Origin: an uncultured Planctomycetaceae bacterium
GTDB taxonomy: Bacteria > Planctomycetota > Planctomycetia > Isosphaerales > Isosphaeraceae
NCBI GenBank assembly: GCA_963833985.1
Contig: CAWIAD010000001.1
Coordinates: forward strand, 3,104,001 to 3,168,000
Length of the DNA stretch: 64,000 bases
Direction: 5' to 3'
In this document: piece after piece, positions 12,002 to 32,481 of the stretch
Numbering within the stretch: the first letter of the stretch is position 1
Layout of the letters: every line of letters starts with the position of its first letter
Notes under the pieces: model-generated
What the model saw: only the letters and a program-made list of their open reading frames with translations
Database searches by the model: none
Told to the model about the DNA's origin: nothing
Position numbers and translations under genes: made by a program

Positions 12002-12017
12002 TGTGGTGTTTCCGACA
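12002..12017. promoter_or_regulatory. NifA upstream activator sequence TGT-N10-ACA for nifB
   Basis: TGTGGTGTTTCCGACA, about 80 bp upstream of the sigma54 site. A near-match lies at 11971-11986. Confidence 0.75.
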
Positions 12018-12093
12018 TGACCTGGGCTGGGAGGCCGCCTGTCCGGGTGCGGAAACCCCGGTGTTCCTGCACTTTTCCTGTAGCCGACCGGTT

Positions 12094-12109
12094 CGGCATC
12101 GGCCTTGCT
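12094..12109 (+). promoter_or_regulatory. Sigma54 (-24/-12) promoter of nifB
   Basis: CGGCATCGGCCTTGCT: GG-N10-GC. Confidence 0.75.
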
Positions 12110-12175
12110 TTGGCCCGATCGAGCCTCGCTACAGCCAACGGGAACGCGCACCGACCGCCCTGGGAGGGCCATCAC

Positions 12176-13654
12176 TTGAAACTCACGGTCCTTGGACAGG
12201 ACGACAACGCCGCGCAGGGGACAGGCTGCTCGGCCTCCTCGTGCGGCAGCACGGCCGACCAGTTCAACCAGCTTCCCCCGTCCATCCGCAGCCGCGTGTA
12301 CAACCATCCCTGCTATTCCGAGCAGGCCCATCACCACTTCGCGCGGATGCACGTGGCCGTGGCGCCGGCCTGTAATATTCAGTGCCACTACTGCAATCGC
12401 AAGTACGATTGTGCAAACGAGTCGCGTCCCGGCGTCGTCTCCGAAGTGCTGACTCCGGAGCAGGCCGTGAAGAAGACGCTCGCGGTGGCGGCGAAGATTC
12501 CCCAGCTGACCGTGCTGGGCATTGCCGGACCGGGCGACCCGCTGGCCAATCCCAGCCGCACGTTCCCCACGTTCCGGATGCTGTCCCAGCAGGCGCCCGA
12601 TATCAAGCTGTGCGTCTCGACCAACGGCCTGGCGCTGCCTGACTGCGTGGACGAGCTGGCGCGGCATAATATCGAACATGTGACGATCACGATCAACTGC
12701 CTGGACCCGGAAGTCGGCCAGCATATCTATCCCTGGGTCTTCTGGAAGCACAAGCGGCTCCGCGGCCGCGCCGCGGCTGCCATCCTCATCGAGCGGCAGC
12801 AGCAGGGGCTGGAAATGCTCGTGGAGCGCGACATCCTGGTGAAGGTGAATTCGGTAATGATCCCCGGCGTGAACGACCAGCACCTCAAGGAGGTGAGCAG
12901 GACGGTCAAGAGCAAGGGGGCCTTCCTGCACAACGTGATGCCACTGATCGCCGAGGCCGAGCACGGAACGTATTACGGCCTCGCGGGCCAGCGCGGACCG
13001 ACCGCGGCCGAGCTCCAGGCATTGCAGGACCAGTGCGCCGGCGACATGAACATGATGCGGCACTGCCGCCAGTGCCGGGCCGATGCGGTCGGCCTCCTGG
13101 GTGAGGATCGGGGCGCGGAGTTCACGCTCGACAAGATCGATGCCCTCGAGATCGACTACGCGGCCGCCATGGAGACTCGCGCTGCGGTCCACCAGGCGAT
13201 TCGCGCGCAGCTTGGAGCCAGCCTCCCCGCGTCGCCGCCGGCGCTTGCGCAAGTTCCCGGCGCAGCGCGCGCGGTGCTCATGGCGGTCGCCAGCCGGGGC
13301 GGAGGGCTCGTCAACGAGCACTTCGGTCACGCGCGCGAGTTCCTCGTTTACGAGGCTTCGCCCGCGGGCGTCCGGTTCATCGGGCATCGCAAGACTGATC
13401 TGTATTGCGGTGGCGGAGACACGTGCGGCGACGCCGAGTCCACGCTCGCCCAGACCATTCGAGCCCTCGAGGGCTGCGTGGCCGTGCTCTGCTCCAAAGT
13501 CGGCTTTGAACCCTGGGAACACCTGGAGGCCGCCGGCATCACTCCCAATGGGGAGCATGCCCTGGAGCCAATCGAGCAGGCCGTCGCGGCAGTTTACCTG
13601 GCCATGTACCAGGAGGGCCGGCTCATCCAGGCCGCCGGTCACAAGGCCGGTTGA
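12176..13654 (+). CDS. nifB: Nitrogenase cofactor biosynthesis radical SAM protein NifB
   Basis: TTG start after GGAGG. HPCY, CNIQCHYCNRKYDCANESRPG, AGPGDPL, HCRQCRADA and a C-terminal NifX-like domain (NEHFGHA). Confidence 0.97.
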   Translation: MKLTVLGQDDNAAQGTGCSASSCGSTADQFNQLPPSIRSRVYNHPCYSEQAHHHFARMHVAVAPACNIQCHYCNRKYDCANESRPGVVSEVLTPEQAVKKTLAVAAKIPQLTVLGIAGPGDPLANPSRTFPTFRMLSQQAPDIKLCVSTNGLALPDCVDELARHNIEHVTITINCLDPEVGQHIYPWVFWKHKRLRGRAAAAILIERQQQGLEMLVERDILVKVNSVMIPGVNDQHLKEVSRTVKSKGAFLHNVMPLIAEAEHGTYYGLAGQRGPTAAELQALQDQCAGDMNMMRHCRQCRADAVGLLGEDRGAEFTLDKIDALEIDYAAAMETRAAVHQAIRAQLGASLPASPPALAQVPGAARAVLMAVASRGGGLVNEHFGHAREFLVYEASPAGVRFIGHRKTDLYCGGGDTCGDAESTLAQTIRALEGCVAVLCSKVGFEPWEHLEAAGITPNGEHALEPIEQAVAAVYLAMYQEGRLIQAAGHKAG

Positions 13655-13680
13655 ACGCCAGCGCAGGAAAGGATCGATCC

Positions 13681-13959
13681 ATGGCACTGAAGATCAACGA
13701 CCAGTGTGTGAATTGCTGGGCATGCTTCGACGTGTGCCCCACGCAGTCGATCTCGCCGGGCAAGCAGCACGCCCACTTCTTCATCGACCCGCGCAGCTGC
13801 ACCGAATGCGAGGGATCGTTCCAGGACCCCCAGTGTGCCTCGATCTGTCCGATCGAGGGCGCGATTGTCCGCAAAGGGGTTCCGCTCAATCCTCCCGGCT
13901 CGCTCAGCGGTCTCGACCCGGAGTGGGTCCGCCAGAGACTGAGCGGCCAGCCAAGCTGA
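13681..13959 (+). CDS. fdxN: nifB-associated 2[4Fe-4S] ferredoxin
   Basis: CVNCWACFDVCP and CTECEG...PQCASICP, directly after nifB. Confidence 0.85.
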   Translation: MALKINDQCVNCWACFDVCPTQSISPGKQHAHFFIDPRSCTECEGSFQDPQCASICPIEGAIVRKGVPLNPPGSLSGLDPEWVRQRLSGQPS

Positions 13960-14050
13960 GTCTCCGGCTGCAAAGCGGCCGCCCGTTGAATCCTGGTACC
14001 AGGGTCCCACGGGCGGTCAGCAAGGAGAGGTTCGATTTCCCCGCCAGCGC

Positions 14051-14926
14051 TCAGCCGGCCAGCACGGCCTCCGTTTGCGTCCAGGTCGTCCGGTCGTGTG
14101 CGGCGTGGATCAGGTCGGTGATGGTGCACTCGAGGATCTCGATCTGCTTGGACTGGCAATAGCGGCGTTCCTTGGCGGTCGGCTCGGGAATCAGTGCCCA
14201 GCCCGCGGGAGAGTCGGCGTCGACGACGATGTCGGAGAGGATCATCCGCTGCGTGTCGCGTTTCATACGCACGCCGGCGATGAGGTATTGCTTGCCCTGG
14301 CGATGCTGCTTGACGAAGCCCGGCACGGCGAAGCCGCCCATGAGCTCGGTGATGTAGTCGACGAAGTCGGCATCCGAGGCGATATAAGTGGGCTCGGGGT
14401 GGGGAGTGCCCAGGGGCTTGAAGAGAATGGGCAGATCAGGGTTGGCCGAGTCGGGGCCCACCTCGCGGTAGGTCTCGCCGTCATACTCCCAGATGCGGAA
14501 CCGGTAATCCGAGGCCATGATCCGGGCCACGCCCGTCACCAGGGTGTGGCGGCGGTTCGCGTAACGGTGCTGGAGCAGCGCATCGCGATTGGTGTCGACA
14601 ATGTAGGGAAGCCGGAGCGAGCTCAGCCACTCGTGCACCGCGCCTCCGGTCCAGGGAGAGCTGTAGACTCGCGTCAGAAACGATGAGAGGAACCGGCGTC
14701 CCTTCTTGAGCTCGAAGTGCATGGCGGCTCGGGGGAACTCGGTCATCAGCTTGGGGCTGATCGGCCGCCCCTCGGTCATCGCCAGGATGAGCGGCTCGTC
14801 GGCCGCGGGGATCGGTGCGCCCGTCCCGGAGTGGATCACGTCGTCCAGGACCTGCGGGCCGAGGTACGGAATCACCTGGCCGGATCGCAGTCCCGCAAGA
14901 ATATGGTCGAATCGACTGGAAGGCAT
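14051..14926 (-). CDS. SIR2-like family protein (nif-associated)
   Basis: VIPYLGP, IVDTNRD, LFKPLG and YIASDADFVDYITELMGGF match the SIR2_2-like proteins I recall from nif clusters. Confidence 0.78.
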   Translation of the reverse strand: MPSSRFDHILAGLRSGQVIPYLGPQVLDDVIHSGTGAPIPAADEPLILAMTEGRPISPKLMTEFPRAAMHFELKKGRRFLSSFLTRVYSSPWTGGAVHEWLSSLRLPYIVDTNRDALLQHRYANRRHTLVTGVARIMASDYRFRIWEYDGETYREVGPDSANPDLPILFKPLGTPHPEPTYIASDADFVDYITELMGGFAVPGFVKQHRQGKQYLIAGVRMKRDTQRMILSDIVVDADSPAGWALIPEPTAKERRYCQSKQIEILECTITDLIHAAHDRTTWTQTEAVLAG

Positions 14927-15004
14927 ACGTGTTTCCTTTCTCTGGTGTGGTCGTCTGTCTGCCCCAGCTCCGCTGCCGTGGGGAACTTCCTCGTTTCCGC
15001 CTGA

Positions 15005-15020
15005 AGCAAGCGACGTGCCA
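15005..15020 (-). promoter_or_regulatory. Sigma54 promoter of the SIR2-like gene
   Basis: Minus strand TGGCACGTCGCTTGCT, a perfect TGGCACG-N4-TTGC. Confidence 0.85.
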
Positions 15021-15077
15021 GCCGCCGATCCGGCCCGCACAGGCCGCTCAGGGCGGCAACGAGCACGGCTGGCGCCG

Positions 15078-15141
15078 TGTCGCACAGCCAGCACCGCGTC
15101 GGAAACCCGACACAGCACCGCCCAATGTGGCAACTCCCACA
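15078..15141. promoter_or_regulatory. NifA UAS cluster shared by the divergent nifH and SIR2-like promoters
   Basis: Perfect TGT-N10-ACA at 15126-15141. One-mismatch sites at 15097-15112 and 15078-15093. Confidence 0.75.
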
Positions 15142-15229
15142 CAATCCGACCCGCGGCTCACGGGATCATCGAGGCTGCCGGCCTCTATTCCAGGCTGCGC
15201 ACGCTTCCTTCGCGAGATGTATTTCGTGT

Positions 15230-15245
15230 TGGCACGGTCCTTGCG
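15230..15245 (+). promoter_or_regulatory. Sigma54 promoter of nifH
   Basis: TGGCACGGTCCTTGCG, consensus match. Confidence 0.88.
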
Positions 15246-15320
15246 AGGTCCACGTCGGTCGCCCACGACGCTAGCTTCAGCAATGGAGCCGATTGACATC
15301 TACATACTCAGGAGACTTGA

Positions 15321-16223
<903 letters not shown>

Positions 16224-16351
16224 GCCCCAAATTGCGGCCCATCCTCCTCTCCCACCGGCCGTGGCCTGCGACCCAGGCCAGATCCTTCCATCGTCTTCCA
16301 GTCCTCTCCAGCGCCATCCGAGACCCATCCCCGATTTCGCAGGAGCCCTCC

Positions 16352-17803
16352 ATGTCCGTGATGACTCGAGAAGAAACCGAGGCCTTGATTCAAGAGGTGC
16401 TCGAGGTGTACCCGAGCGCCGCCCGCGAGGACCGGGCCAAGCACCTGGCCGCCAACGACCCCGAGCTCGCCCAGTCGAAGAAGTGCATCACCTCGAACAA
16501 GAAATCGCTTCCCGGCATGATGACGATCCGCGGCTGCGCCTACGCCGGCTCGAAAGGCGTCGTCTGGGGACCGATCAAGGACATGATCCACATCTCGCAC
16601 GGTCCTGTCGGCTGCGGCCAGTACTCCCGCGCCGGGCGGCGCAATTACTACATCGGCACGACGGGCGTGAACACGTTCGTCACCATGAACTTCACCTCCG
16701 ATTTTCAGGAGAAGGACATCGTCTTCGGCGGCGACAAGAAGCTCACCGCGCTGATCGGCGAGGTCGAAACCCTCTTCCCGCTCAACAAGGGAATCACGGT
16801 CCAGTCCGAATGCCCGATCGGACTGATTGGCGATGACATCGAGGCGGTTTCCAGGAAGGTCTCGAAGGAGATCGGCAAGCGGGTCGTGCCGGTGCGGTGC
16901 GAGGGCTTCCGGGGCGTTTCACAGTCGCTTGGCCACCACATCGCCAACGACTCGATCCGCGACCACGTCTTCACCGACGGCATCGAGGACCGCGCGACCG
17001 CCTGGCAGCCTTCGGATTACGACGTCTCGATCATTGGCGACTACAACATTGGCGGCGATGCCTGGTCGTCACGCACCTTGCTGGAAGAGATGGGCCTGCG
17101 CGTGGTTGCCCAGTGGTCGGGCGACGGCACGATCGCCGAGCTGGAAAACACGCCCAAGGTCAAGCTCAACCTGCTGCATTGCTATCGCTCCATGAACTAC
17201 ATCTCGCGGCACATGGAGGAGAAGTACGGTATTCCCTGGGTGGAGTACAATTTCTTCGGGCCCACCAAGATCGCCGAGTCGCTGCGGAGCATCGCGCAGC
17301 ACTTCGATGCGTCCATTCAGGAGGGCGCGGAGCGGGTGATCGAGAAGTACCGTCCCGAGTTCGAGGCGGTCGTCGAGAAGTACAAGCCGCGGCTGAAGGG
17401 CAAGCGGGTGATGCTCTTCGTCGGCGGCCTGCGGCCGCGCCACGTCATCGGCGCCTATGAAGACCTGGGCATGGAGGTGGTTGGCACCGGCTACGAATTC
17501 GGCCACAACGACGACTACGACCGCACGCTCAAGGAGATGGGCAACGCCACCCTGCTCTATGACGACGTCACCGGCTACGAGTTCGAGGAGTTCGTCAAGA
17601 AGATCAAGCCTGATCTCATCGGCTCGGGCATCAAGGAGAAGTACATCTTCCAGAAGATGGGCATCCCCTTCCGGCAGATGCACTCGTGGGACTACTCCGG
17701 TCCGTACCACGGCTACGACGGCTTCGCCATCTTCGCCCGCGACATGGACATGACGCTGAACAACCCGTGCTGGAACCAGATCCGGCCGCCCTGGAAGTCA
17801 TGA
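16352..17803 (+). CDS. nifD: Nitrogenase MoFe protein alpha chain
   Basis: [42 protein letters not shown] (FeMo-co Cys), [12 protein letters not shown] (Mo-ligating His). No group II insertion. Confidence 0.99.
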
Positions 17804-17870
17804 CCCGGCCGCGCACCGCCACGGAACGACGCCTGGAGCAGACGCATACACCCCGAAGGGAGCGAGTCCC

Positions 17871-19442
17871 ATGAGCCAGAATGTGGAAGCAATCAAGCCC
17901 TGCTTTCCCCTCTTTCGCGAACAGGAATACAAGGATAGCCTCGCGCGCAAGAAGGAGCTGTACGAGGAAGCTCACGACGCCGGCAAGATCCGCGAGGTCT
18001 TCGAGTGGACCACGACGGCCGAGTACCAGGAGCTCAATTTCAATCGCCAGGCCCTGACCGTGAACCCGGCGAAGGCCTGCCAGCCTCTGGGCGCGGTGCT
18101 GTGTGCCCTGGGGTTCGAGAAAACCCTCCCCTACGTCCATGGCTCGCAAGGCTGCGTCGCCTACTTCCGGACGTATTTCAACCGCCACTTCAAGGAGCCG
18201 ATCTCCTGCGTTTCCGACTCGATGACCGAGGACGCGGCGGTCTTCGGCGGCCAGAAGAACATGTTCGCCGGCCTGGAGAATGCCCGGGCGGTCTACAAGC
18301 CCGACATGATCGCCGTGAGCACGACGTGCATGGCCGAGGTCATCGGCGACGACCTGAACGCGTTCATCAACAACGCCAGGAAGAACGGGCACGTCCCCGA
18401 GGAGTATCCCGTGCCGTTCGCGCACACCCCGAGCTTCGTGGGCAGCCACACCACGGGCTGGGACAACATGATGGAGGGGATCCTTCGCTTCTTCACGCTC
18501 AACCACATGGAAGGCAAGCGGGCCGGCACCAACGCCAAGATCAATATCGTTCCCGGCTTCGAGACCTACCTGGGCAACTTCCGCGTGATCAAGCGGATGC
18601 TGCGCGAGATGGACGTTCCGTTCACGTTCCTGTCCGATCCGGAAGAGGTGCTCGACACGCCGGCCGACGGCCAGTTCCGGATGTACGCCGGAGGCACCAC
18701 GCAGGAGGAGGTGAAGGACGCTCCCAATTCGTCCGCCACGTTCCTGCTCCAGCCCTGGCAGCTCGACAAGACGGCGAAGTACGTTGAGAACACATGGGGC
18801 CACGAGATCCCGATCACGCACATCCCCATGGGGCTGGAGTGGACCGACCAGTTCCTCATGAAGGTCTCCGAGGTGACCGGCAAGCCCATCCCGGCATCGC
18901 TCGAGAAGGAGCGCGGCCGGCTCGTCGACATGATGACCGACTCGCACACCTGGCTGCACGGCAAGACCTTCGCGCTCTGGGGCGACCCGGACTTCGTGAT
19001 GGGGCTGTGCAAGTTCCTCACGGAGGTGGGAGCCGAGCCCACTCACGTCATCTGCCACAACGGCAACAAGCGGTGGCGCAAGGAACTCATGGGGCTGCTC
19101 GCCGAGTCGCCCTACGGCAAGAAGGCCGAGGTGCACATCGGCCGCGACCTCTGGCACCTGCGCTCGCTGGTCTTCACCGACAAGCCTGACTTCATGATCG
19201 GCAACTCGTATGGCAAGTTCATCCAGCGCGACACGATCACCAAGGGACCCGAGTTCGAGGTCCCGCTGATCCGGCTCGGCTTCCCGATCTTCGACCGCCA
19301 TCACCTGCACCGCGACACGACGCTTGGCTACGAGGGCGCGATGCACATGCTGCGGACGGTCGTCAACGCCGTTCTTGAAAAGCTCGACCATGACACCCGC
19401 GGCATGGGTACGACCGACTACAACTACGACCTGATCCGCTGA
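17871..19442 (+). CDS. nifK: Nitrogenase MoFe protein beta chain
   Basis: NPAKACQPLG, HGSQGCVAYFR, TTCMAEVIGDDL, C-terminal YNYDLIR. Confidence 0.99.
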   Translation: MSQNVEAIKPCFPLFREQEYKDSLARKKELYEEAHDAGKIREVFEWTTTAEYQELNFNRQALTVNPAKACQPLGAVLCALGFEKTLPYVHGSQGCVAYFRTYFNRHFKEPISCVSDSMTEDAAVFGGQKNMFAGLENARAVYKPDMIAVSTTCMAEVIGDDLNAFINNARKNGHVPEEYPVPFAHTPSFVGSHTTGWDNMMEGILRFFTLNHMEGKRAGTNAKINIVPGFETYLGNFRVIKRMLREMDVPFTFLSDPEEVLDTPADGQFRMYAGGTTQEEVKDAPNSSATFLLQPWQLDKTAKYVENTWGHEIPITHIPMGLEWTDQFLMKVSEVTGKPIPASLEKERGRLVDMMTDSHTWLHGKTFALWGDPDFVMGLCKFLTEVGAEPTHVICHNGNKRWRKELMGLLAESPYGKKAEVHIGRDLWHLRSLVFTDKPDFMIGNSYGKFIQRDTITKGPEFEVPLIRLGFPIFDRHHLHRDTTLGYEGAMHMLRTVVNAVLEKLDHDTRGMGTTDYNYDLIR

Positions 19443-19489: not shown

Positions 19490-19702
19490 ATGCCCAAGGT
19501 GATGCTCCGCCGGGCGGCGTCCGGCAGCCTCGTCTTCTACGTCGCCAAGAAAGACCTGGAAGACGAGGTGGCCTCGCTCGAGTTCGACCAGCCGGACAAA
19601 TGGGGCGGCGAACTGGTGCTGCGCGACGGATCGCGCTATTTCGTCGAGCCGTTCGACGCCCCGCCCCGGCTCCCCCTGACCGTGCAGGCGCAAAAGCTTT
19701 GA
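19490..19702 (+). CDS. nifT: NifT/FixU
   Basis: MPKVMLR...FYVAKKDLE...KWGG...LPLTVQA, located after nifK. Confidence 0.92.
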   Translation: MPKVMLRRAASGSLVFYVAKKDLEDEVASLEFDQPDKWGGELVLRDGSRYFVEPFDAPPRLPLTVQAQKL

Positions 19703-19730: not shown

Positions 19731-20471
19731 ATGGGACTCTCGTTTTCACGCGAAACCGCGCTGCGGATTGGCAAGGCGGCGCAGGCCCTGCCGGGCGTGC
19801 CCGTGGCCGACCTGGTCGACGGACTGGCCAGGGAGCTGGGCTGGCCCCTGGATGAAGGCGTTCTCGATCGCGTGACCGTCAGCCAGCTGCGCAATGCCCT
19901 CGTCCAGGGCGGGCCTGGCGCCGCTGAACCCAGGTCGCCCTCCGCCGCGCTCGCCGATCGTTTCTCGATCGAGCGGCTCAAGGAAGTGGTCGAGATCCTC
20001 TGGGGCCAGAGGGAACAGGAGCAGGCGGAGCCCCCACTCGATGACTTCGCGGACGGGGCGATGCCCGGCTCGGTCCGGGTGGCCGTCGCCTCGGACGCGG
20101 GCGAGGAGATCGACGCCCATTTCGGCTCAGCCCGGCGCTACCTGGTCTACCAGGTGTCCCCGGGCGAAGCCCGGCTCATCGACATTCGCCGCACCGACGA
20201 TCCGGGCGAGACCCGAGACGGCACCGAGTTCCGCGTCGGGCTCATCGACGATTGCCACGTGCTCCTGGTGCAGTCGATCGGCGGGCCGGCCGCGGCCAAG
20301 GTCATCAACGCCGGGATCTACCCGCTGAAGCAGGCAGGAGGCGGCCCCGCACGCGTCTTCCTGGCCACTCTCCAGGCACGGATGGCCACAAGCCCGCCTC
20401 CCTGGCTGGCCAAGGCAATGAACGTCCCGCTCGAGGACCGCATTCGTCTCCACTCCGAGGCCGAGGTGTGA
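19731..20471 (+). CDS. nifY: NifY/NafY FeMo-co binding protein
   Basis: ALRIG..A..LPG N-domain plus NifX-like domain ([25 protein letters not shown]). Confidence 0.85.
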
Positions 20472-20565: not shown

Positions 20566-21978
20566 ATGACTTCCAAAGATGTGGCCGAGCTGCTCAACGA
20601 GCCGGCCTGCGAACACAACAAGAAGGAGAAGTCTGGCTGTGCCAGGCTGAAGCCAGGCTCGACGGCCGGCGGATGCGCCTTCGACGGCGCCCAGATCGCG
20701 CTCATCCCGGTCGCCGACGTGGCCCACATCGTGCACGGACCGATCGCCTGCGCAGGCAGCTCGTGGGACAATCGCGGCACCCGGTCCTCGGGTCCGGAGC
20801 TCTACCGCATCGGCATGACCACCGACCTTACCGAGCAGGACGTGATCATGGGCCGGGGTGAGGAGCGGCTCTTCCATTCGATCAAGCAGGCGATCGACGA
20901 CCATGCCCCGGCCGCCGTCTTCGTGTACAACACCTGCGTCCCCGCACTCATCGGCGACGACGTGGAGGCCGTCTGCAAGGCCGCCAACCAGCGCTGGGGG
21001 GTGCCGGTGGTCCCCATCGACTGCGCCGGCTTCTTCGGCACGAAGAACCTGGGGAACCGCATCGCCGGCGACGCCATGCTCAAACATGTGATCGGTACCC
21101 GCGAGCCCGACCCGCTACCGCAGGGAATGCCCGCCGGCATCAGCGTGCACGACATCAACCTGATCGGCGAGTACAACATCGCCGGCGAGCTGTGGCACGT
21201 CCTGCCGCTCTTCGACGAGCTGGGCCTGCGCGTCCTCTGCACGCTTTCCGGGGACGCCCGGTTCCGCGAGATCCAGACCATGCACCGTGCCAGGGCGAAC
21301 ATGATGGTCTGCTCGAAAGCCCTGCTCAACGTGGCTCGAAAGCTCGAGCAGAAGTATGGAACGCCCTGGTTCGAGGGATCGATCTACGGCGTGGCCGACA
21401 CCTCGGCGGCGCTTCGGGATTTCGCCCGGATCATCGCCGATCCGGACCTGACACGCCGCACCGCAGCGCTCGTCGCGCGAGAGGAGGCCAGGATCCACGA
21501 GGCGCTCGAGCCCTGGCGCACCCGGCTCAAAGGTAAGCGGGTGTTGCTCTACACCGGGGGCGTCAAATCGTGGTCGATCATCTCGGCACTTCAGGACCTG
21601 GGGATGGATGTGGTCGCCACCGGAACCACCAAGTCGACCGAGGAGGACAAGAAGCGGATTCGCGAGCTCATGGGCGAGCAGGTGAAGATGATTGACGACG
21701 GCAATCCCCGTGCGCTCTTGAAACTGGTACGGGAGCTTGACGCTGACATCCTGATTGCCGGTGGCCGCAACATGTACACCGCGCTCAAAGCCAGGATCCC
21801 GTTCCTGGACATCAACCAGGAGCGGGATTTCGGTTACGCCGGCTACACCGGCATGCTCGAGCTGGCCCGCCAGCTCACGAACACCCTGGAGAGCCCGGTC
21901 TGGGAAGCGGCGACCCGACCGACACCCTGGCAGTCCGCCAGCGACATCATTCCCGCCCAACGGCGGCTTCGCGCGTGA
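20566..21978 (+). CDS. nifE: FeMo-co scaffold NifE
   Basis: [42 protein letters not shown]. Confidence 0.97.
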
Positions 21979-23385: not shown

Positions 23386-23870
23386 CAGGGTCGATCCCCG
23401 TGCAGCTGAAGATTTGCGATGACCGTGAAACGCCCTGCGAGCCGGCGCTGCTGGTGGCCTTCGCCAGCAGCGACATGACCGCCGTGGATCAGCATTTTGG
23501 GTCCGCGACGCGGTTCGTGGTTTATCGCGTCAGTGCACGCGAAGGGACGCTGCTCCATCTGACGCAGTTCGAGGAGACGAGCCAGGACGGCAATGAGTCG
23601 AAGCTGGCCGCCAAGATTGCGGCCCTCAGCGGCTGCTCGGCAGTTCTCTGCGTGGCCGTGGGTGCCTCGGCCCTGCGACAGCTCGTGGCCGCCGGCATCC
23701 AGCCCATCAAGGTGGAGCCTGGAAGCACGATCCGCGAGGCCGTGGCGCTTCTGGTCCAGGAGATCCAACGAGCTTCCACGCCGTGGGTGGTCAAGGGGCT
23801 GCGGCGTGCGGGTGGAACCCAGGAGTTCAGCCGGTTTGACGACATGGAACAGGGTGGCTGGAAAGGCTGA
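23382..23870 (+). CDS. nifX: NifX
   Basis: [32 protein letters not shown] motif. Confidence 0.93.
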
Positions 23871-23989: not shown

Positions 23990-24448
23990 ATGTCCATGAG
24001 TACCACGACCGACCTGGCCCAACACGCGATCATTCGACAGATCGTCAAGCAGGTCCGGGCCAACGACACCTACGGTCAGTATGACCGGAGTACGACTGAA
24101 GAGCTGATCGCCCCGTTCATCGTCACAAAGGAGCAAAAGCACGAGATCCCCATCGTGGGTGACCCCGACGAGCAGACGATCGAGCGCGTGCGGGAGTATT
24201 ACAATGCCATCTCGTCGCTGGTCGAGGAAAGGACGGGGTTGATGGCGATCCCGATGATGAGCCTGACACATGAGGGGTTCGGCCGCGCGCTCATCACCGT
24301 GGGCAAGCTCGTTGTCTATGACCGGACGCTGCGCAACGTCCATCGCTACGGTTACAGCTCGGTCGAGCACCTGGAATCGGAAGCCGACAAGGCGCTCACC
24401 GGCATCCTGGGACTCATCGAGCGCTACCGAGAAGTGGCCGAGGACTGA
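23990..24448 (+). CDS. NifX-associated protein (DUF269)
   Basis: VRANDTYG, EIPIVGDPD, HEGFGR, LRNVHRYGY. Confidence 0.88.
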   Translation: MSMSTTTDLAQHAIIRQIVKQVRANDTYGQYDRSTTEELIAPFIVTKEQKHEIPIVGDPDEQTIERVREYYNAISSLVEERTGLMAIPMMSLTHEGFGRALITVGKLVVYDRTLRNVHRYGYSSVEHLESEADKALTGILGLIERYREVAED

Positions 24449-24467: not shown

Positions 24468-24782
24468 ATGAGCACCAGCACGCTTTCGTATGTCGGCCGC
24501 ACGCGGGGCGGGGCCGAGTGGTACCCCAGATACGTCATGGCCCTGGACCAGTCGCGCTGCATCGGCTGCGGCCGGTGCTTCAAGTCGTGCTCGCGATCGG
24601 TTTTCCAGCTCGTCGCGCGGGAGACCGACGAGGATGACGACTGTGACGAGACCTCCAAGGTCATGCAGATTGCCGATGCATTCGACTGCATCGGCTGCGA
24701 GGCCTGCGGCAAGGTCTGCCCCAAGTCATGCCTCACGCACGAGTCAGTCGAGCAGTCTGCCGAGGCAGTTGCTGCAAGATGA
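24468..24782 (+). CDS. fdxB: nif-specific ferredoxin III
   Basis: TRGG.EW.P, CIGCGRCFKSCSR, acidic loop, CIGCEACGKVCPKSC. Confidence 0.9.
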   Translation: MSTSTLSYVGRTRGGAEWYPRYVMALDQSRCIGCGRCFKSCSRSVFQLVARETDEDDDCDETSKVMQIADAFDCIGCEACGKVCPKSCLTHESVEQSAEAVAAR

Positions 24783-24870: not shown

Positions 24871-24916
24871 TGTCGGATCTTCGACATGGACCGGTAAAAA
24901 TGTGAACTTCGCGACA
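24871..24916. promoter_or_regulatory. Two perfect NifA UAS upstream of nifU
   Basis: TGTCGGATCTTCGACA (24871-24886) and TGTGAACTTCGCGACA (24901-24916). Confidence 0.82.
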
Positions 24917-24980
24917 CCCACCGCGCCGCGCAAGCGTTGCGCGGCCGCATCCGGGACGGTGTGAAATTGAAGTCAGGGAT

Positions 24981-24996
24981 TGGCATCCTATTTGTT
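24981..24996 (+). promoter_or_regulatory. Sigma54 promoter of the nifU operon (GT in place of GC at -12)
   Basis: TGGCATCCTATTTGTT: GG-N10-GT, about 65 bp downstream of the UAS pair. Confidence 0.65.
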
Positions 24997-25116: not shown

Positions 25117-26031
25117 ATGTGGGAGTACTCCGAGAAAGTTCAGGACCATTTCTTCCACCCGCGGAACGCGGGCGCGCTGGTTGACGCCAATGCGGTGGGC
25201 GAGATCGGATCGATCGCCTGCGGCGACGCACTGCGGCTGATGCTCCGGGTGGACCCTGAGTCCGAACGGATCCTGGACGCGCGGTTCCAGACCTTCGGTT
25301 GCGGTTCCGCGATTGCGTCGTCCTCGGCGCTCACGGAGATCATCAAGGGCAAGTCGCTCGACGACGCGCTTCAGGTCTCGAACCAGGATATTGCCGACTA
25401 TCTCGACGGTCTGCCTCCCGAGAAGATGCACTGTTCCGTCATGGGGCGGGAAGCTCTCCAGGCCGCGGTCGCCAACTACCGGGGAGTGGCGCCGGCCGAA
25501 GATCACGAGGAAGGGGCACTGGTGTGCCACTGCTTCGGCATTCATGCCGGGCTGATCGAGGAGGTCGCGCAGAGCAACCGGCTGGCGACGGTGGAGGACA
25601 TCACGAACTACACGAAGGCGGGAGGCGGCTGCACTTCCTGCCACGAGAAGATCGAGGAAATGCTGGACCAGATCAAGGCGAAGCGGAGCCAGCGGCTGGA
25701 CCCGGTGGAGTCCGAGTGTCCGCCGCTACCGCGGGCACCGCGGTGGTCGGAGCTGACCATGCCCCAGCGGGTGCGCCGGGTCGAGTCCGTCATCGAGCGC
25801 ATCCGTCCCCAGTTGCGGGCGGACCACGGGGACATCGAACTCGTGGAGATCGATGGCAAGGCCGTCTTCGTCTCGATGCTCGGTGCCTGCAAGGGATGCG
25901 CGCAGGAGGCGGCCACGCTCGGCGGATTGCAGCAGAAGCTCATCGAGGAATTCGGCGAGCTGGTGACCGTACGTCCGGCCCATGCAATGGCTCTGGCCGC
26001 GGCCAGCCGGGGAGGCAATCACCATGGCTGA
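25117..26031 (+). CDS. nifU: Fe-S scaffold NifU
   Basis: [46 protein letters not shown] (three-domain NifU). Confidence 0.96.
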
Positions 26032-27239
26032 TATCTATATGGACAACAACGCCACGACCAGGGTTGATCCCGCGGTCGTGGAGGCGATGCTCCCCTTCTT
26101 CACCGAGCAGTTCGGCAATCCCTCGTCGATGCACAGCTTCGGTGACCAGGTGGGCAAGGCGATCAAGAAGGCGCGGGGACAGGTGGCCGGGCTCCTCGGC
26201 GCGGCCCACGATTCCGAGATCATCTTCACCTCGTGCGGGACGGAGTCCGACTCGACGGCCATCCTCTCGGCCCTCAAGTCGCAGCCGGACCGCTGCGAGC
26301 TGATCACCACGGCCGTGGAGCACCCCGCCATTCTCAATCTCTGCGAGCACCTCGAGAAGCAGCTCGGCGAGGATGGCTACGTCGTGCACCGGCTGCACGT
26401 CGATTCCAAGGGCCGGCTTGATCTCCGCGAGTATCGCCGGCTGCTCGGGCCGCAGACGGCCGTCGTCTCGGTGATGTGGGCCAACAACGAGACCGGGACG
26501 ATCTTCCCGGTCGAGGAGATGGCCGAGATGGCGAAGTCCTGCGGCGCCCAGTTCCATACCGATGCGGTCCAGGCCGTGGGCAAGGTTCCCATCAACCTCA
26601 AAGAATCCACGATCGACATGCTGTCGCTCTCCGGCCACAAGCTGCATGCGCCCAAGGGGGTGGGCGTACTCTACCTGCGCCGCGGAACCCGGTTTCGACC
26701 GCTGCTGCGCGGAGGCCACCAGGAGCGGGGGCGGCGCGGGGACGGAGAACACCGCGTCGATCGTGGCCCTGGGCCAGGCGGCCGAGCTGGCATCGGAGCA
26801 CCTCGTCCTCGAGAACACCACCGTCAAGGCAATGCGCGATCGCCTGGAACAAGCCATCATCGAGCAGGTGCCGAACTGCTTCGTCACGGGCGATCGCTCC
26901 AGCCGCCTGCCCAATACCTCGAACATTGCGTTCGAGTACATCGAAGGCGAGAGCATCCTGCTCATGCTGAACCGCCTGGGCATCGCAGCGTCGAGCGGTT
27001 CGGCGTGCACATCGGGATCGCTGGAGCCCTCGCACGTGATGCGCGCCATGGGCATTCCCTACACCGCTGCGCATGGAACCATCCGGTTCTCGCTCTCGCG
27101 TTACAACACCATGGCCGAGGTCGAGCGTGTGATCCAGGCCGTGCCGGGGATCGTCCAGCAACTGCGCTCGCTCTCGCCTTACTGGAACGGTGACTGCCCG
27201 GTCGCCGCCGAGGCCGCGTTCGCTCCGAAGTACGCTTGA
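26024..27239 (+). CDS. nifS: Cysteine desulfurase NifS (frameshift near 26735)
   Basis: [43 protein letters not shown]. The [13 protein letters not shown] motif is split by a 1-base loss. Confidence 0.95.
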
Positions 27240-27271
27240 CCCATCGTCGATTATTCATCCTCGAGGCATTC

Positions 27272-28433
27272 ATGGCTCTCTCGAAGACGATCGTGCTCGA
27301 CGACACGACGCTGCGCGACGGCGAACAATCGGCGGGCGTGGCGTTCACGGTCCAGGAGAAGATGGCGATTGCCCAGGACCTCGATCGCGCCGGCGTGCCG
27401 GAGCTCGAGGTTGGCATCCCCAGCATGGGCGACGAGGAGCGCGAAAGCATCCTGGCCGTCGCCTCGAGCGGGCTGAATGCCAGGCTTCTGGTATGGTGCC
27501 GGATGCGGCAGGACGACCTGGACGCCTCGGCCGGACTGGGCGCCCACATGGTCGACCTGTCGATTCCGGTCTCCGACCTCCAGATCCGGCACAAGCTGCG
27601 GCGCGACCGGCCGGCCGTGCTGAGGACGATCCGCGAGCTTGTGCCGCAAGCCGTCGCGGCCGGCATGGAAGTCTGCGTCGGCGGCGAGGACGCGTCACGC
27701 GCCAGCATCACCTTCCTGCTCCGCGTCATCGAGGCCGCCGAGTGCGCCGGCGCACGACGGTTCCGGTTCGCCGACACGGTGGGTATCCTCGACCCCTTCC
27801 GGACCCACCGCATCTTTCGCAGGCTGCGACGATCCACCTCCATGGAGCTGGAGATGCACGCGCACGACGACCTGGGCATGGCCACGGCGAACAGCCTGGC
27901 AGCCGCACGCGCCGGCGCGACTCACGTCAACACGACCGTCAATGGCCTGGGCGAGCGCGCGGGAAACGCGCCACTGGAGGAAGTTGCCGTTGCTCTGGAG
28001 ATGCTTCACGGCGTGCAGACCGGGGTGGATCTCCGGCGCCTGCCTGCCGTATCCACCCGGGTCGCGCAAGCGTCCGGCCGGCAGGTCGGCTGGCAGAAGA
28101 GCCTGGTGGGTGAGGGGGTCTTCACCCATGAGGCCGGCATCCACGTCGACGGGCTGCTCAAGAACCGGCTCAATTACCAGGGGGTCGACCCCGCGCTCCT
28201 GGGCCGCGAACACCGTCTTGTTCTGGGCAAGCATTCCGGCTCGCATGCCGTGGAGCGGGCCCTGGTGGCCCTGGGGCTGGACGCCGACCCTGGCGAGGTC
28301 GCCGAGATTCTCCGGCAACTCCGGTCGTTCGCCGAAGCTTCCAAGCGGTCCCCCACCGAGCACGACCTGCGACTCCTGGTACGCCAGACTCGTCACTCAT
28401 CGACCCCTGCCCAGCGGAGGACTCGTCCCGTGA
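27272..28433 (+). CDS. nifV: Homocitrate synthase NifV (reads through into nifW as assembled)
   Basis: DTTLRDGEQSAG, FADTVG, MHAHDDLGMATANS, GLGERAGNA, FTHEAGIHVDG, LGKHSG. Confidence 0.93.
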
Positions 28434-28774
28434 TCAGCGACCCGATGCAGGAAGATCTTCAGGAGCTCGGCAGCGCCGAGGAGTTCCTGAACTACTTCGA
28501 AGTGCCGTTTGACGAGCGCATCGTACAAGTCAACCGCTTGCACATCCTTCAGAGATTTCACGATTATCTCGCGCGGGCCACGGCGGAGCGACCCCTTGCG
28601 GATGTCGTAAGCCGTGAGAGCTACAAGGCACTGCTGATGCGTGCCTACCAGGATTTCGTCGACTCCGACGCGATTACTCAGCGGGTCTTCAAGGTGTTCC
28701 ATGACGTCCGCGGCGAGAGCTTCGTGGCCGCGGAAACCATCGGCCTGCAACCAGGGAAGCCCACCCAGGAGTGA
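28430..28774 (+). CDS. nifW: NifW
   Basis: GGAGG then GTG at 28430. SAEEFLNYF, VNRLHILQRF, AYQDF, VFKVF. Confidence 0.9.
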   Translation: MISDPMQEDLQELGSAEEFLNYFEVPFDERIVQVNRLHILQRFHDYLARATAERPLADVVSRESYKALLMRAYQDFVDSDAITQRVFKVFHDVRGESFVAAETIGLQPGKPTQE

Positions 28775-28778
28775 CGCC

Positions 28779-29246
28779 GTGATTCCAGCATTTGATTATG
28801 GGGACATGGTGCGCGTCATCCGCACGATCCGCAACGACGGAACCTACCCCGATATGGAGACAGGCGCCCAGCTCGTGCGGGCCGGCAGCGTGGGGCACGT
28901 CCGCAACGTGGGGACCTTTCTTCAGGAGCAGATCATCTACGCCGTGCACTTCCTGGGAGAGGACCGGATCGTCGGTTGCCGCGAGGAAGAGCTGGTCTCC
29001 ATCGACGCGCCCTGGACCACGACCCGGTTCCTCTTCCGCGATTGCGTCGTGGCGCGCATCCCTCTGACCGTCGGCGGGCAAGTGGTCGTTGCCCAGGGTT
29101 CGGCGGGCGAGGTGGTCCAGCGCCTGGGTGACGGACCACAGGGACCAAGCTACCATGTCGGTTTCGGCAACCGCGTCTTTCAGGTACCGGAGTCGGCTCT
29201 GGACGAGGCTCCGGTCTGCGACCTGCCGGAAGATCCCGGCGCATGA
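28779..29246 (+). CDS. nifZ: NifZ
   Basis: P.FDYG..VRV.R.IRNDGTYP, GTFLQ.QIIY.VHF, VGCREEEL. Confidence 0.92.
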   Translation: MIPAFDYGDMVRVIRTIRNDGTYPDMETGAQLVRAGSVGHVRNVGTFLQEQIIYAVHFLGEDRIVGCREEELVSIDAPWTTTRFLFRDCVVARIPLTVGGQVVVAQGSAGEVVQRLGDGPQGPSYHVGFGNRVFQVPESALDEAPVCDLPEDPGA

Positions 29247-29280
29247 GACGACCCCAGGCGCGGACACGTGGAGCGACGCC

Positions 29281-30084
29281 ATGCTTCCCGAGCTTTCGGA
29301 CGACGAGCGGACACGCTACGACAGGCAGATCGGGCCGGGCGTTCTCACCGAGCAAGGACAGCAGCGCCTGAAGGCCGCGACGGCCCTGGTAACGCGGGTG
29401 GGCGGCGTCGGCGGGCCAGCGGCGCTGGCCCTGGCCATGGCGGGCCTTGGCAAGCTCATCATCGCGCACGGCGGCCCGCTGGAATCGCCCGACCTGAACC
29501 GGCAGGTGCTGGGCTCGGAAGCTGGCGTGGGGCAGCCCCGCGCCTGGCAATTCGCGGAGAACATCCGCAAGCTCTGCCGGTTCGTCGAAATTGACGTCAT
29601 CCCGCACGAACCCGACGAGGACGAGGCCGTCGAGCTGGCACGACGCGCGCAGATCGTGCTCAGTTGCCCCGCGGACTTCACGCACCGGCTCCGGCTCAAC
29701 CGCGCGGCCCACCGCGCCGGTGTGCCATTCATCGACGCCGCGCAGTGGGGCATGGCCGGTTCGCTTTTCGTCAGTGATGGAGCGACGACGCCGTGCCTGG
29801 AGTGCCTCTACCCGGAAGAGCCCCCGTTCGAGCCTCGGTTTCCGGTCGTGGGAGCGATCGCCGGGGCCATCGGCAACCTGGCGGCCCTCGAAGCCGTGAA
29901 GATTCTCAGCGGCACCGGCAAGCCAATCTGGGGACAGATGTTGCTCATCGACGGGTTCAGCGGCGAGACGCACAGGATCTGCCTGCAACGGCGGCCCACG
30001 TGCCCGGTGTGCGCTGGCTATCCTCCAGCGACCGGCGAGAAGATCAGGACCTCGTCCCCTTCACGGAGCGTCCTTTCGCGGTGA
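29281..30084 (+). CDS. hesA: HesA/MoeB/ThiF family E1-like adenylyltransferase
   Basis: RYDRQ, VGGVGG, DLNRQ, PCLECLYP, CPVC. Last gene of the nifU operon. Confidence 0.82.
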   Translation: MLPELSDDERTRYDRQIGPGVLTEQGQQRLKAATALVTRVGGVGGPAALALAMAGLGKLIIAHGGPLESPDLNRQVLGSEAGVGQPRAWQFAENIRKLCRFVEIDVIPHEPDEDEAVELARRAQIVLSCPADFTHRLRLNRAAHRAGVPFIDAAQWGMAGSLFVSDGATTPCLECLYPEEPPFEPRFPVVGAIAGAIGNLAALEAVKILSGTGKPIWGQMLLIDGFSGETHRICLQRRPTCPVCAGYPPATGEKIRTSSPSRSVLSR

Positions 30085-30269
30085 TCGGCGACCGTGCCGA
30101 GATGCTCGCCGCAGACTGCGACCATGGTGCCAGGGCCCAGCGCGCACTGCCAGGCGCGAACCGCGGACAGCGCCTCGTCGAGCGATGCCCCCTCGGGGAG
30201 TTCCAGGACCTCGGGAATTGACCCAGACTCTGGATACTGCCTCCCCGTAATCTTCACTCGTACCTTCAC
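30018..30269 (-). CDS. MoaD/ThiS-like ubiquitin-fold sulfur carrier
   Basis: About 83 aa ending LREGDEVLIFSPVAGG-stop (C-terminal diglycine). Confidence 0.82.
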   Translation of the reverse strand: MKVRVKITGRQYPESGSIPEVLELPEGASLDEALSAVRAWQCALGPGTMVAVCGEHLGTVADHRERTLREGDEVLIFSPVAGG

Positions 30270-30348
30270 TCGCCTTGCCTCCCAAGAATCTCTACGCGCT
30301 CTAGGCGGTTTTCTGACCGGTTGCAAGCAGCTTCTGAGGTCTTGGAAA

Positions 30349-30412
30349 GGGGGGCAGACATTCCTGTCTGCCAGGGCAGGCCGGCTCCGGCAGGCAGGAA
30401 TGCCTGCCCCCC
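30349..30412. repeat. REP-like inverted repeat pair
   Basis: GGGGGGCAGACATTCCTGTCTGCC (30349-30372) and GGCAGGCAGGAATGCCTGCCCCCC (30389-30412) are near-perfect reverse complements, and each arm is itself a hairpin. Confidence 0.75.
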
Positions 30413-30505
30413 TCAGTCTCAATCTGCGTTCCAAGTGAAAACCGCTCTAGACCTCGACAAGTCGCTCGCAGTGCATCGGCAGATCGCTCGCGCATGGAGC
30501 GTTTC

Positions 30506-30522
30506 TGCTCCATTTGTGTGCA
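30506..30522. promoter_or_regulatory. NtrC-like binding site upstream of the nifA promoter
   Basis: TGCTCCATTTGTGTGCA compared with consensus TGCACCA-N3-TGGTGCA (11 of 14 positions). Confidence 0.5.
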
Positions 30523-30637
30523 GAATGTGTGATCCAGGAAAGGCCTTTTTGTCGCAACTGTGGGATCTTGACAGGTCCCGCGGGCTAAAGCGAAGTCACC
30601 ATGCAGTTTACAAGCCGAGCTTCAACGGCCGCGAGGT

Positions 30638-30653
30638 TGGTGCGAGATTTGCA
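30638..30653 (+). promoter_or_regulatory. Sigma54 promoter candidate for nifA
   Basis: TGGTGCGAGATTTGCA: GG-N10-GC. Confidence 0.6.
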
Positions 30654-30907
30654 CTTGTGAGACTGATCCTCGATCGCAGCGATGCCGGACGAGCGGATTC
30701 CATCCACGATTGACGATCGCCAGCGGACGTCGTTGGTCAACGCACAAATGAATCGTCATCTTCTCGATGGCGATGCACGGTTGCAAGCCGTCGAAGCGAT
30801 TCCTTGCATCGGACGGTGGAAAGCTGACATCGGATGGGGATGGTCCCGCGGTCAAAAGCCGCGTGGATCCAGAGTTCCAGGTCCGTTGAAGCTCCCGGAG
30901 GGAAAAG

Positions 30908-32481
30908 GTGGAGCCGCTACCCTTGGCCTGCCCGGCGACTGATTGTGCATCCTGCCCGATCACGATTGAACGCGACATGTTCTTCAGCGTCAGCCAGATC
31001 CTGGCTCACTCGCTGGATCTGCGCCGCACGCTTTCCGATGTGCTTCAAGAGCTGGAGAACCGGGTCAATCTCACACGGGGCATCGTCACCCTGCTGGACG
31101 CGGAGAGTGGCGACCTGATCCTGGAGGCGATGATCGGCCCCGATGGAACGATTTTCAAGCCGGCCGACATCCGCTACCGGAGCGGTGAAGGGATTCTCGG
31201 TCAGATCCTCGCCGAGGGCCAGACCATCGTCGTGAGCCGGATCGCCGACGAGCCGAGGTTCATTGGCCGCCTGGGGATCTACGATCCCGAGCTACCATTC
31301 ATCGCCGTACCGATCCGGCTCGGCACGCGGATCGTAGGAGTGCTCGCGGCGCAGCCGCAACCATCGTCGGACGTCGACCTCAGGGACCGGGCACGCGCCC
31401 TGGAGATGGTCGCCAACCTGGTCGGTCAGGTGATCCGACTTTCGTGGAACATGGCCGAGGAGCGCAAGCACCTGGTCAGCGAGCGTGATCGTCTCTTGCA
31501 GGAAGTTCGCGGCCAGTACGGCTTCGACAATATCATCGGCCGCTCCGCGCTCATGCGGCGAGTCTTCGAGCAGATCCGCGCGGTCGCCAAGTGGACGACG
31601 ACCGTGCTCATTCGCGGAGAGTCCGGCACGGGGAAGGAGTTGGTCGCCAACTCCATCCACTACAATTCCCAGCGGGCCGACAAGCCGTTCATTCGCCTCA
31701 ACTGCGCTGCACTGTCGGACCAGCTTCTCGAATCCGAGTTATTCGGTCACGAGAAGGGGGCGTTCACCGGCGCGGGCGATCATCGCCTGGGGCGTTTTGA
31801 GCAGGCCGACGGCGGCACGCTTTTCCTGGACGAGATCGGCGAAATCTCCTCCTCGTTCCAGGCCAAGCTGCTGCGCGTCTTGCAGGAAGGGGAGTTCGAG
31901 CGGGTCGGCAGCTCCCAGACCCGCAACGTCGACATCCGGATTATCGCCGCCACCAACCGCAATCTCGAAGAAGACGTGCAATCCGGCAAGTTCCGAGAGG
32001 ACCTCTATTACCGGCTCAACGTGATGCCGATCTACATGCCGCCATTACGCTCGCGGATCGAGGACGTGCCTGACCTCTCCCGGGCGCTCGTCAGTCGTAT
32101 CGGCACGCGCCAGGGACGCCAGTTGCTCGTCACGGATTGTGCGCTGCGGCTCTTGATCCAGTACGATTGGCCCGGGAATATCCGTGAGCTCGAGAACGTG
32201 CTGGAGCGCGCCGCGGTCATGGCCGAGGACGGCATGATTGACCATGAGGCCCTCACGCTGAGCGGTCTCGAGGACCGCATCCTCTCGCGCGGCGGAAATC
32301 TGATCCAGCTTCAGCCCAAGGTGAACTTCAACGACCCTGACCTCGACGAGCGCGAGCGCATCGTCTCGGCGCTGGAGAGCCCGGCTGGGTTCAGGCCAAG
32401 GCCGCCCGCCTGCTCGGGATGACTCCCAGGCAGATTGCCTACCGGATCCAGCAGTTCAACATCAAGATGAGACGGCTCTGA
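30908..32481 (+). CDS. nifA: Nif-specific transcriptional activator NifA (frameshift near 32380)
   Basis: GAF domain, [34 protein letters not shown]. The [26 protein letters not shown] lies in the shifted frame ending at 32481. Confidence 0.95.

Follow-up and report, generated by a model that had tools for sequence, protein, structure and literature searches.

Group I nitrogenase genes derived from Gammaproteobacteria have been described in four Isosphaeraceae genomes from campos rupestres (Camargo et al., PMC9938248), and acetylene reduction has been recorded in a cultured planctomycete, Crateriforma (Zhang et al., PMC12628686). Here we analyze the nitrogen fixation (nif) cluster in a 64,000-nucleotide stretch (hereafter, the window; contig CAWIAD010000001.1, positions 3,104,001 to 3,168,000) of an uncultured planctomycete genome (GCA_963833985.1; G000). 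Like the cluster of Camargo et al., it resides in Isosphaeraceae, encodes a group I nitrogenase that groups with Gammaproteobacteria, and is densely packed, with a SIR2-family gene, nifT, nifY, and ferredoxin III; the consulted part of that paper mentions neither nifL, nor a NifA motif, nor group II or Fe-only nitrogenase in the family, nor a shared site. Crateriforma sp. HD03 (Pirellulaceae) is likewise a planctomycete with nifHDKBEN and nifA, and acetylene reduction under air is a property of this strain; unlike the window's host, it is marine, belongs to another family, and is reported to have rnf, FeSII, and hydrogenase genes (PMC12628686). The terms “Aquisphaera” and “Isosphaer-” are absent from the main text of that report, and planctomycetes are not mentioned in the main text of bioRxiv 10.64898/2026.07.27.741065, whose supplements may list these genomes. 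With the transfer and the acetylene reduction both published, a first-pass annotation that called diazotrophy in this phylum known mostly from a few metagenome bins is out of date, and proteobacterial group I nif in Isosphaeraceae is already known. Two features appear new relative to the literature found: a NifA activator that has no NifL partner and is tipped with cysteines, and a site between lutC and gltA that is shared by nitrogenase types. Literature searches, judged by title or abstract start, found no published account of the NifA CxxCP motif or of an exchange of nif types at one site, and Fe-only nitrogenase in Isosphaeraceae did not come up.

Another point of comparison is the major nif cluster of Azotobacter vinelandii and Stutzerimonas stutzeri A1501, with its gene orders HDKTY-ENX and USV-WZ. 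The window shares group I NifHDK and NifA with sigma-54 promoters with this cluster, and the order of its genes is as the first-pass annotation had it. It differs in that nifB and nifA bracket a single 20-kb block, NifA has a CxxCP extension, no match to nifL, nifQ, or rnf is found, and no nifM match exceeds the cut-off in a search run without a positive control. The locus is very probably a true molybdenum-nitrogenase cluster of group I, carried by a planctomycete of the Isosphaeraceae; this degree of confidence applies jointly to the whole explanation, namely a group I cluster, a proteobacterial donor, an old transfer, and inheritance at the lutC-gltA site. The cluster is real, of a kind already published, and probably working.

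The cluster (12002–32481) comprises nifB, a ferredoxin gene, a SIR2-like gene on the opposite strand, nifHDKTY, nifENX, a DUF269 gene, ferredoxin III, nifUSVWZ, a ThiF-family gene, and nifA; its proposed limits coincide with the NifA site before nifB and the nifA stop codon. The SIR2-like and DUF269 genes had been missed in the original inventory. The nifHDKENB core is uninterrupted, as claimed: all six genes of this minimum set are single open frames that score over their NCBIfam cut-offs (bits/cut-off: nifB, 652/344; nifH, 463/394; nifD, 847/654; nifK, 889/427; nifE, 701/505; nifN, 595/327). The accessory set was borne out in part: nifT, Y, X, U, V, W, Z, two ferredoxins, and the ThiF-family gene are there (with Pfam matches for the second 4Fe-4S ferredoxin, nifY, nifX, nifW, nifZ, and the ThiF-family gene), but nifS, nifV, and nifA carry indels. 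Catalytic and cluster-binding motifs lie at the expected places in NifH, D, K, B, and E; alignment to solved structures reveals the P-cluster and FeMo cofactor (FeMo-co) ligand motifs in NifD/NifK and the P-loop and cluster cysteines in NifH, with ligand positions in Azotobacter numbering. Searches against the PDB retrieve MoFe nitrogenase alpha chains first, and among solved structures the nearest are those of group I MoFe and Fe proteins. This is not a V- or Fe-only enzyme: nifD and nifK families score best, there is no delta subunit, and an AnfG query finds no match in the G000 genome. The group I assignment follows from the long NifK N-terminus, a NifD that lacks the group II insertion, and grouping with proteobacterial NifHDK; NifK and NifD are 523 and 483 residues long, compared with 460 and 555 in G011, a group II carrier (G0xx handles denote genomes and L0xx handles named loci; since both are drawn from one GTDB set, with possible overlap, their counts are never summed).

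The host is an Isosphaeraceae planctomycete, as had been proposed from the flanking genes. Its genome (10.16 Mb in two contigs; 96% complete, 3.9% contamination) encodes an RpoC that shares 94% identity with its counterpart in the genome from which the Aquisphaera insulae locus comes, 93% with Paludisphaera soli, and 90% with Singulisphaera sp. PoT, and its best matches in a collection scan are Isosphaeraceae or Planctomycetota records. Some of the cues behind the original proposal held (TPR kinase, Gfo/Idh/MocA, and phosphatase domains), whereas the TsaC half of a supposed fusion was not confirmed; the EQRLL and VPEP motifs are visible in translations but have no family match.

Where did the cluster come from? 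In an NifHDK tree, the six planctomycete group I rows (five from Isosphaeraceae plus G026, from another family) form one clade (99 by the Shimodaira-Hasegawa-like approximate likelihood ratio test) among 71 mostly gamma- and beta-proteobacterial rows, in line with the proteobacterial type assigned earlier; a NifD tree agrees (support 98). The tree has 80 rows, sampled as the best 80 matches of a scan; 7 of 84 rows were dropped for having fewer than 1000 filled columns, and L016 and L017 were excluded for possible overlap with genome handles. The donor was probably gamma/beta-proteobacterial, with entry into one planctomycete lineage long enough ago for codon use to match that of the host. Several observations weigh against too precise a version of this history: the sister group of the planctomycete clade has a support of only 84, the sample is biased to top matches, and the outgroup branches are long; the tree pairs G000 with G002 (94) rather than G002 with G010, contrary to the species tree, for which the heavily frameshifted nif genes of G010 may be the cause; and fourfold sites are near saturation, so that vertical inheritance is weakly timed.

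Could the island instead be proteobacterial DNA joined to this genome by mis-assembly or binning? The assembly is error-rich and has 3.9% contamination, yet the island lies within a 3.5-Mb contig, its closest NifK relatives are planctomycetes (92% and 84%; proteobacteria reach at most 80%), and its composition matches the host. Above all, G002, from the same genus, has the same genes in the same order between the same flanks, with lutABC and gltA as left and right neighbors, and the left junction recurs in G010; because a congeneric genome repeats the arrangement, a chimera is barely credible. The type strain Aquisphaera insulae JC669 (L017) also has nifB through nifV in the same order.

The first-pass annotation had inferred an old, ameliorated transfer from similar GC content and from borders without integrase or tRNA, and this reading stands. 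Island GC is 64.7% against 64.8–65.0% for the two contigs, its genes lie at the 48th–99th percentile of host codon adaptation, and its tetranucleotide distance is at the 77th percentile of 495 windows; this composition, together with divergence, led us to reject a recent transfer. A search of the island found no tRNA, Rfam match, integrase match, or convincing terminal repeat; it thus lacks the integrase, tRNA target, terminal repeats, and atypical composition of a mobile genomic island. Fourfold-site divergence between G000 and G002 is 0.36–0.54 for nif genes and 0.49–0.60 for flank genes, and in nifB, the SIR2-like gene, and nifH, G002 and G010 resemble each other more than they do G000, as expected from the species tree. 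The cluster would then have been inherited at the lutC-gltA site since before G000 split from G002 and G010. Nitrogenase is nonetheless patchy: an alpha-chain match is present in 10 of 121 family genomes and in 16 of 401 sampled phylum genomes, the other 15 of which comprise 13 with group II, one with group I, and one not placed.

If the cluster works, why are three of its genes broken? As assembled, NifA lacks its DNA-binding helix-turn-helix (1-nt deletion), NifS lacks its C-terminal third (2-nt deletion), and nifV reads through into nifW (1-nt insertion). About ten similar breaks affect flanking genes in the first 40 kb, including ispH/lytB, lutB, lutC, and gltA, and genes for a pyruvate:ferredoxin oxidoreductase (PFOR) and modA elsewhere in the genome are likewise in pieces. 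Since indels of this type also disrupt housekeeping genes, we consider it highly probable that the nifS, nifV, and nifA indels are sequencing or assembly errors. A real but decaying cluster, in which true nifA and nifS frameshifts would preclude any switch-on, is improbable. Decay does occur in the genus, in which G008 has broken group I genes and 6 of 14 genomes have no nitrogenase match (5 of those 6 are less than 90% complete), and the truncated NifA and NifS would be expected from it. However, each break is a single 1–2-nt indel beyond which the match to relatives resumes (identity 79–81% before and 77–81% after for nifS; 85–72% and 91% for nifA), the flanks have a higher density of breaks than the island, no in-frame stops interrupt the tested island genes, and promoter elements are intact. 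The apparent NifV-NifW fusion was rejected as a true feature: the two genes are separate in G002, G075, and G026. The counts of frameshifts, three inside the 20-kb island and about ten in the flanks, possibly reflect uneven polishing.

The island does not stand alone: close relatives have another type of nitrogenase at this site. Among 14 genomes of the genus surveyed, G001 (contig ends), G005 (no lutA match), and G007 (other neighbors) are uninformative. Group I nif occupies lutC-gltA in G000, G002, and G010 (only the left side is seen in G010); group II nif, in G011, G006, and G003 (only the gltA side is seen in G006 and G003). The site is empty in G004, G008, G012, and G013, the last of which has its group I cluster elsewhere, and G009 has lost nif and gltA there. 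The group II operon reads gltA, nifA, H, D, K, E, N, B, ferredoxin, nifV, sufS-sufE. In the window, a sufS-sufE fusion gene sits between lutC and nifB, at the same position and on the same strand as the last gene of this operon in G011. Among 20 genomes, its orthologue is found in G000 and five group II carriers, adjoining nifV in four (G011, G006, G008, and G080), and is absent from all four empty sites. The genus copies form one clade (100), and the divergence of the gene, 0.46, is flank-like. In the species tree, built from rplKAJL-rpoB-rpoC DNA in place of an earlier RpoB-only tree of weak support, G000 falls outside a clade of (G002, G010) and (G003, G006, G011, G009) with 100 bootstrap support; gltA and lut trees agree. 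Since the group I genes and sufS-sufE both look as old as the G000 split, the simplest account is an ancestor with both clusters: it seems reasonably probable that this ancestor also held a group II nif operon at lutC-gltA, of which sufS-sufE is a remnant. In G008, genes of the two groups directly adjoin each other.

Several points count against this reconstruction, in which the order of events is not fixed. In G065, sufS-sufE and the group II cluster are on different contigs; G008 is placed differently in the sufS-sufE tree, at 78 support, and is known from a fragmented bin in which the cluster lies at a different site; and outside the family, none of 80 loci with SufS-SufE fusions has a real nif gene nearby (one has a 36% NifH-like match), a result that led us to reject the fusion as a general nif marker. 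An alternative, which we regard as rather unlikely, holds that sufS-sufE is an unrelated insertion and that groups I and II entered a lutC-gltA hotspot independently, or that group II took the place of group I in the G003/G006/G011 branch alone. SufS-SufE fusions are indeed widespread without nif, and the clade within which the group II trio nests is one with group I at this site (100 bootstrap). Replacement in this direction can occur: on one 9.5-kb contig of G008, broken group I nifV and nifA, nifZ, hesA, and a broken gltA are followed by group II nifA and nifH, as if the group II operon had landed inside a group I cluster; on another, group II nifN, B, V, and sufS-sufE lie beside a truncated group I nifB. 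Yet an unrelated insertion sits poorly with the shared position and strand, the absence from every empty site, the link to group II nifV in four of the five other genomes, and the single clade with flank-like divergence. An ancestor with both operons remains our preferred reading.

G008 also has nitrogenase genes of a third type. A third contig has anfD, G, K, and O over cut-off, and the G008 loci (L109, 5937–13575; L259, 1–6631; L448, 1–9536) contain an Fe-only operon (anfA, H, D, G, K, O), a group II Mo operon in which nifD/K are unassembled, and, next to the latter, broken genes of group I. Its group II genes are a mosaic relative to G011: nifH, N, and B are 92–98% identical; nifA, nifV, and sufS-sufE, 73–83%. 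This pattern points to a recent recombination within the core. Outside this class of planctomycetes, G337 (L210, L225) has both an AnfD-like chain (79% identical to that of G008) and a group II NifD.

How would a transplanted cluster be controlled? It had been described as complete and regulated. NifA and its promoters are in place, but nifL, nifQ, and rnfD were not found despite positive controls, and the label is overstated. All four TGT-N10-ACA matches in the 64 kb lie before nifB, nifH, or nifU, relatives retain both their position and their distance from sigma-54 sites, and G000 has rpoN and P-II genes; the raw number of matches to either promoter pattern in the window does not exceed chance, and support comes from position and conservation. 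The window NifA scores 579 bits (cut-off 529), has a GAF-AAA-helix-turn-helix architecture (with the last element behind the 1-nt indel), and is placed by a tree as NifA derived from the NifL-partnered type. In the proteobacterial arrangement, NifL would be its partner, but nifL is found neither beside nifA nor elsewhere in G000: the best hit of a profile search, 94 bits over one PAS domain, falls short of the 242-bit cut-off, which both proteobacterial controls exceed. None of four other group I planctomycete genomes passes the cut-off, and G010 is a fifth without nifL.

NifA has an N-terminal CxxCP motif directly ahead of the GAF domain in G000, G002, G013, and G026, as does NifA of A. insulae JC669 (P0009). 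Among the best 120 of 581 homologues, CxxCP is present in 18 of the top 22 and in none of the next 98; the four exceptions, one of which is the window's own gene call, begin downstream of the motif. The CxxCP proteins form one clade (95, FastTree), every organism-named member of which is a planctomycete; no named planctomycete relatives of the more distant NifA sub-clade are among the matches listed. NifL directly precedes motif-less NifA in L270, L271, L464, and L465. In a predicted structure, the N-terminal domain folds as a NifA GAF, with CxxCP carried by a short segment at the N terminus. The family's group II NifA and the AnfA of G008, which also lack NifL, have an N-terminal cysteine pair with a different spacing, Cx4C. 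In the CxxCP clade, a cysteine is also present in the AAA+ region in 18 of 23 rows, compared with 0 of 95 others.

The nearest functional parallels are VnfA and AnfA of A. vinelandii, sigma-54 activators whose activity needs N-terminal GAF-domain cysteines; VnfA may bind a [3Fe-4S] cluster (PMC9542535). The window protein differs from them in being NifA by score and tree and in its cysteine spacing. It is quite possible, at slightly less than an even chance, that in the absence of NifL the CxxCP segment binds an Fe-S cluster or a metal, so that NifA itself senses oxygen or redox state, as has been suggested for VnfA/AnfA; the motif would then stand in for NifL. Two findings speak against such a substitution: L466 has a motif-less NifA without a NifL match within 10 kb on either side, and the CxxCP proteins, being one clade, make the pairing of motif with missing NifL one event, not many. 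A serious competitor, also just short of evens, is that the cysteines are structural or neutral and that oxygen and nitrogen control is left to host factors, such as P-II acting on GAF or control of the nifA sigma-54 promoter. A sigma-54-like promoter precedes nifA in all four genomes, P-II genes are available, and a reconstituted VnfA cluster gave no clear oxygen sensitivity in E. coli (PMC9542535). By contrast, neutral residues would hardly be expected in every full-length member seen, down to about 42–46% identity in the GAF region, nor would a cysteine pair in the NifL-less group II NifA and AnfA of the same family. The broadest proposal, in which uptake of a nifL-less gamma-type cluster led NifA to sense for itself through an oxygen-labile metal center at CxxCP, and groups I and II sat side by side at one site, were reciprocally lost, and left mutual relics (sufS-sufE; broken G008 nifB, nifV, and nifA), is tentative and, taken whole, doubtful.

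In the working model, NifA and host sigma-54 would switch on the nifB, nifH, SIR2-like, and nifU promoters; NifUS, B, V, and EN would assemble FeMo-co; and NifH would pass electrons to NifDK, all roles established in nif biochemistry. The notion of a self-contained Azotobacter-type system fails here, because NifL, NifQ, and Rnf were not found: in the G000 genome, RnfD and nifQ queries have no matches (with one and two positive controls, respectively), and neither an Rnf nor a Fix electron supply was found. Candidate FixAB genes were rejected, as the only electron transfer flavoprotein (ETF) in the genome adjoins acyl-CoA dehydrogenase genes. This ETF (G000:C1:3448500-3451300) has subunits 67–71% identical to Marinobacterium ETF, is found in 3 of 10 genomes only, and is possibly a separate transfer. 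Since neither Rnf nor Fix was found, electrons would be drawn from the host NifJ-type PFOR through the two cluster ferredoxins, the simplest path being from PFOR via ferredoxin to NifH. Both PFOR and modA belong to the host and occur in the nif-less G004 as well, and the group I cluster of G026 encloses a 2-oxoacid:ferredoxin oxidoreductase, which fits this route.

The G026 cluster (L102, 8841–12462; L103, 10175–13795) also has a bacterioferritin-like gene, modA, and an IscA-type gene, and a bacterioferritin gene likewise precedes nifB in G013. NifH retains a proline matching Pro258 of Azotobacter NifH, the NifM-dependent residue, though the nifM search reached only 54 bits (cut-off 168). Full-length [NiFe] hydrogenase large subunits (~735 bits) are encoded in the three group II carriers tested (G011:C220, G006:C595, and G008:C13); among group I carriers, matches are weak in G000 (C1:1254839), G002, and G075 and missing in G013 and G026. 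Beyond gltA, the window encodes a large beta-helix repeat protein with an EQRLL motif (36164–41464), split over three frames but probably one gene, with homologues at the equivalent place in G002 and G009. Coordinates of the cluster and its flanks are given in Table 1.

Table 1. Features of the nif cluster and its flanks (window coordinates)
Feature	Position	Strand	Evidence or remark
lutABC-like lactate utilization genes, left host flank	6988..9938	+	lutB, lutC frameshifted in assembly; same flank in G002, G010, G011, G004, G008, G012, G013
sufS-sufE fusion gene	9993..11796	-	1-nt insertion near 10745; probable leftover of group II nif operon
NifA upstream site TGT-N10-ACA for nifB	12002..12017	+	before nifB in 5/6 genomes scanned
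Predicted sigma-54 promoter (-24/-12) for nifB	12094..12108	+	6/6 genomes
nifB, radical SAM protein with C-terminal NifX-like domain	12176..13654	+	NCBIfam; CxxxCxxC motif found
2[4Fe-4S] ferredoxin (fdxN-like)	13678..13959	+	Pfam; 55% to ferredoxin after nifB in Marinobacterium
SIR2-like nif accessory gene, divergent from nifH	14051..14932	-	PF13289; 53% to gene beside nifH in Marinobacterium
Predicted sigma-54 site of SIR2-like gene	15006..15020		pattern search
NifA site (15126-15141) and sigma-54 promoter (15230-15244) for nifH	15126..15244	+	both in 6/6 genomes
nifH, Fe protein	15324..16223	+	NCBIfam, structure alignment, motifs
nifD, MoFe alpha chain, group I	16352..17803	+	NCBIfam, structure alignment, motifs
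nifK, MoFe beta chain, long group I N-terminus	17871..19442	+	NCBIfam, motifs
nifT	19490..19702	+	over cut-off
nifY/nafY-type cofactor carrier	19731..20471	+	Pfam
nifE	20566..21978	+	NCBIfam
nifN	21991..23385	+	NCBIfam
nifX	23382..23870	+	98 bits, slightly below cut-off 112; Pfam match
NifX-associated protein (DUF269, TIGR02935)	23993..24448	+	NCBIfam/Pfam
nif-specific ferredoxin III	24468..24782	+	over cut-off
Two NifA sites (24871, 24901) and sigma-54-like site (24981) before nifU	24871..24995	+	NifA sites in 4/4 genomes; sigma-54 pattern in 1/4 only
nifU	25117..26031	+	over NCBIfam cut-off
nifS	26024..27239	+	2-nt deletion near 26740 in assembly
nifV, homocitrate synthase	27272..28433	+	over NCBIfam cut-off; 1-nt insertion near end (~28373) gives apparent nifW fusion
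nifW	28442..28774	+	Pfam
nifZ	28776..29246	+	Pfam
ThiF/MoeB-family gene (hesA-like; hesA in the first-pass annotation)	29281..30084	+	Pfam
33-bp hairpin between hesA and nifA, terminator-like	30348..30413	.	repeat search
Sigma-54-like promoter 270 nt upstream of nifA, without NifA site	30638..30652	+	4/4 genomes
nifA, N-terminal CxxCP ahead of GAF domain	30908..32481	+	1-nt deletion near 32380 removes helix-turn-helix in assembly
Citrate synthase gltA, right host flank	32546..33800	-	two frameshifts in assembly

The possible importance of this locus lies in how a transplanted nitrogenase is controlled without NifL. If true, oxygen sensing by NifA on its own would represent a design distinct from both the NifL-NifA pair and the linker cysteines of the alpha type, and would be useful for nitrogen-fixation engineering. 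Group I, group II, and Fe-only nitrogenases all occur in this one genus, two of them at a single site, which offers a natural setting for asking why one type is kept by a cell; and because the cultured type strain A. insulae JC669 carries the cluster, its activity and regulation are directly accessible to testing.

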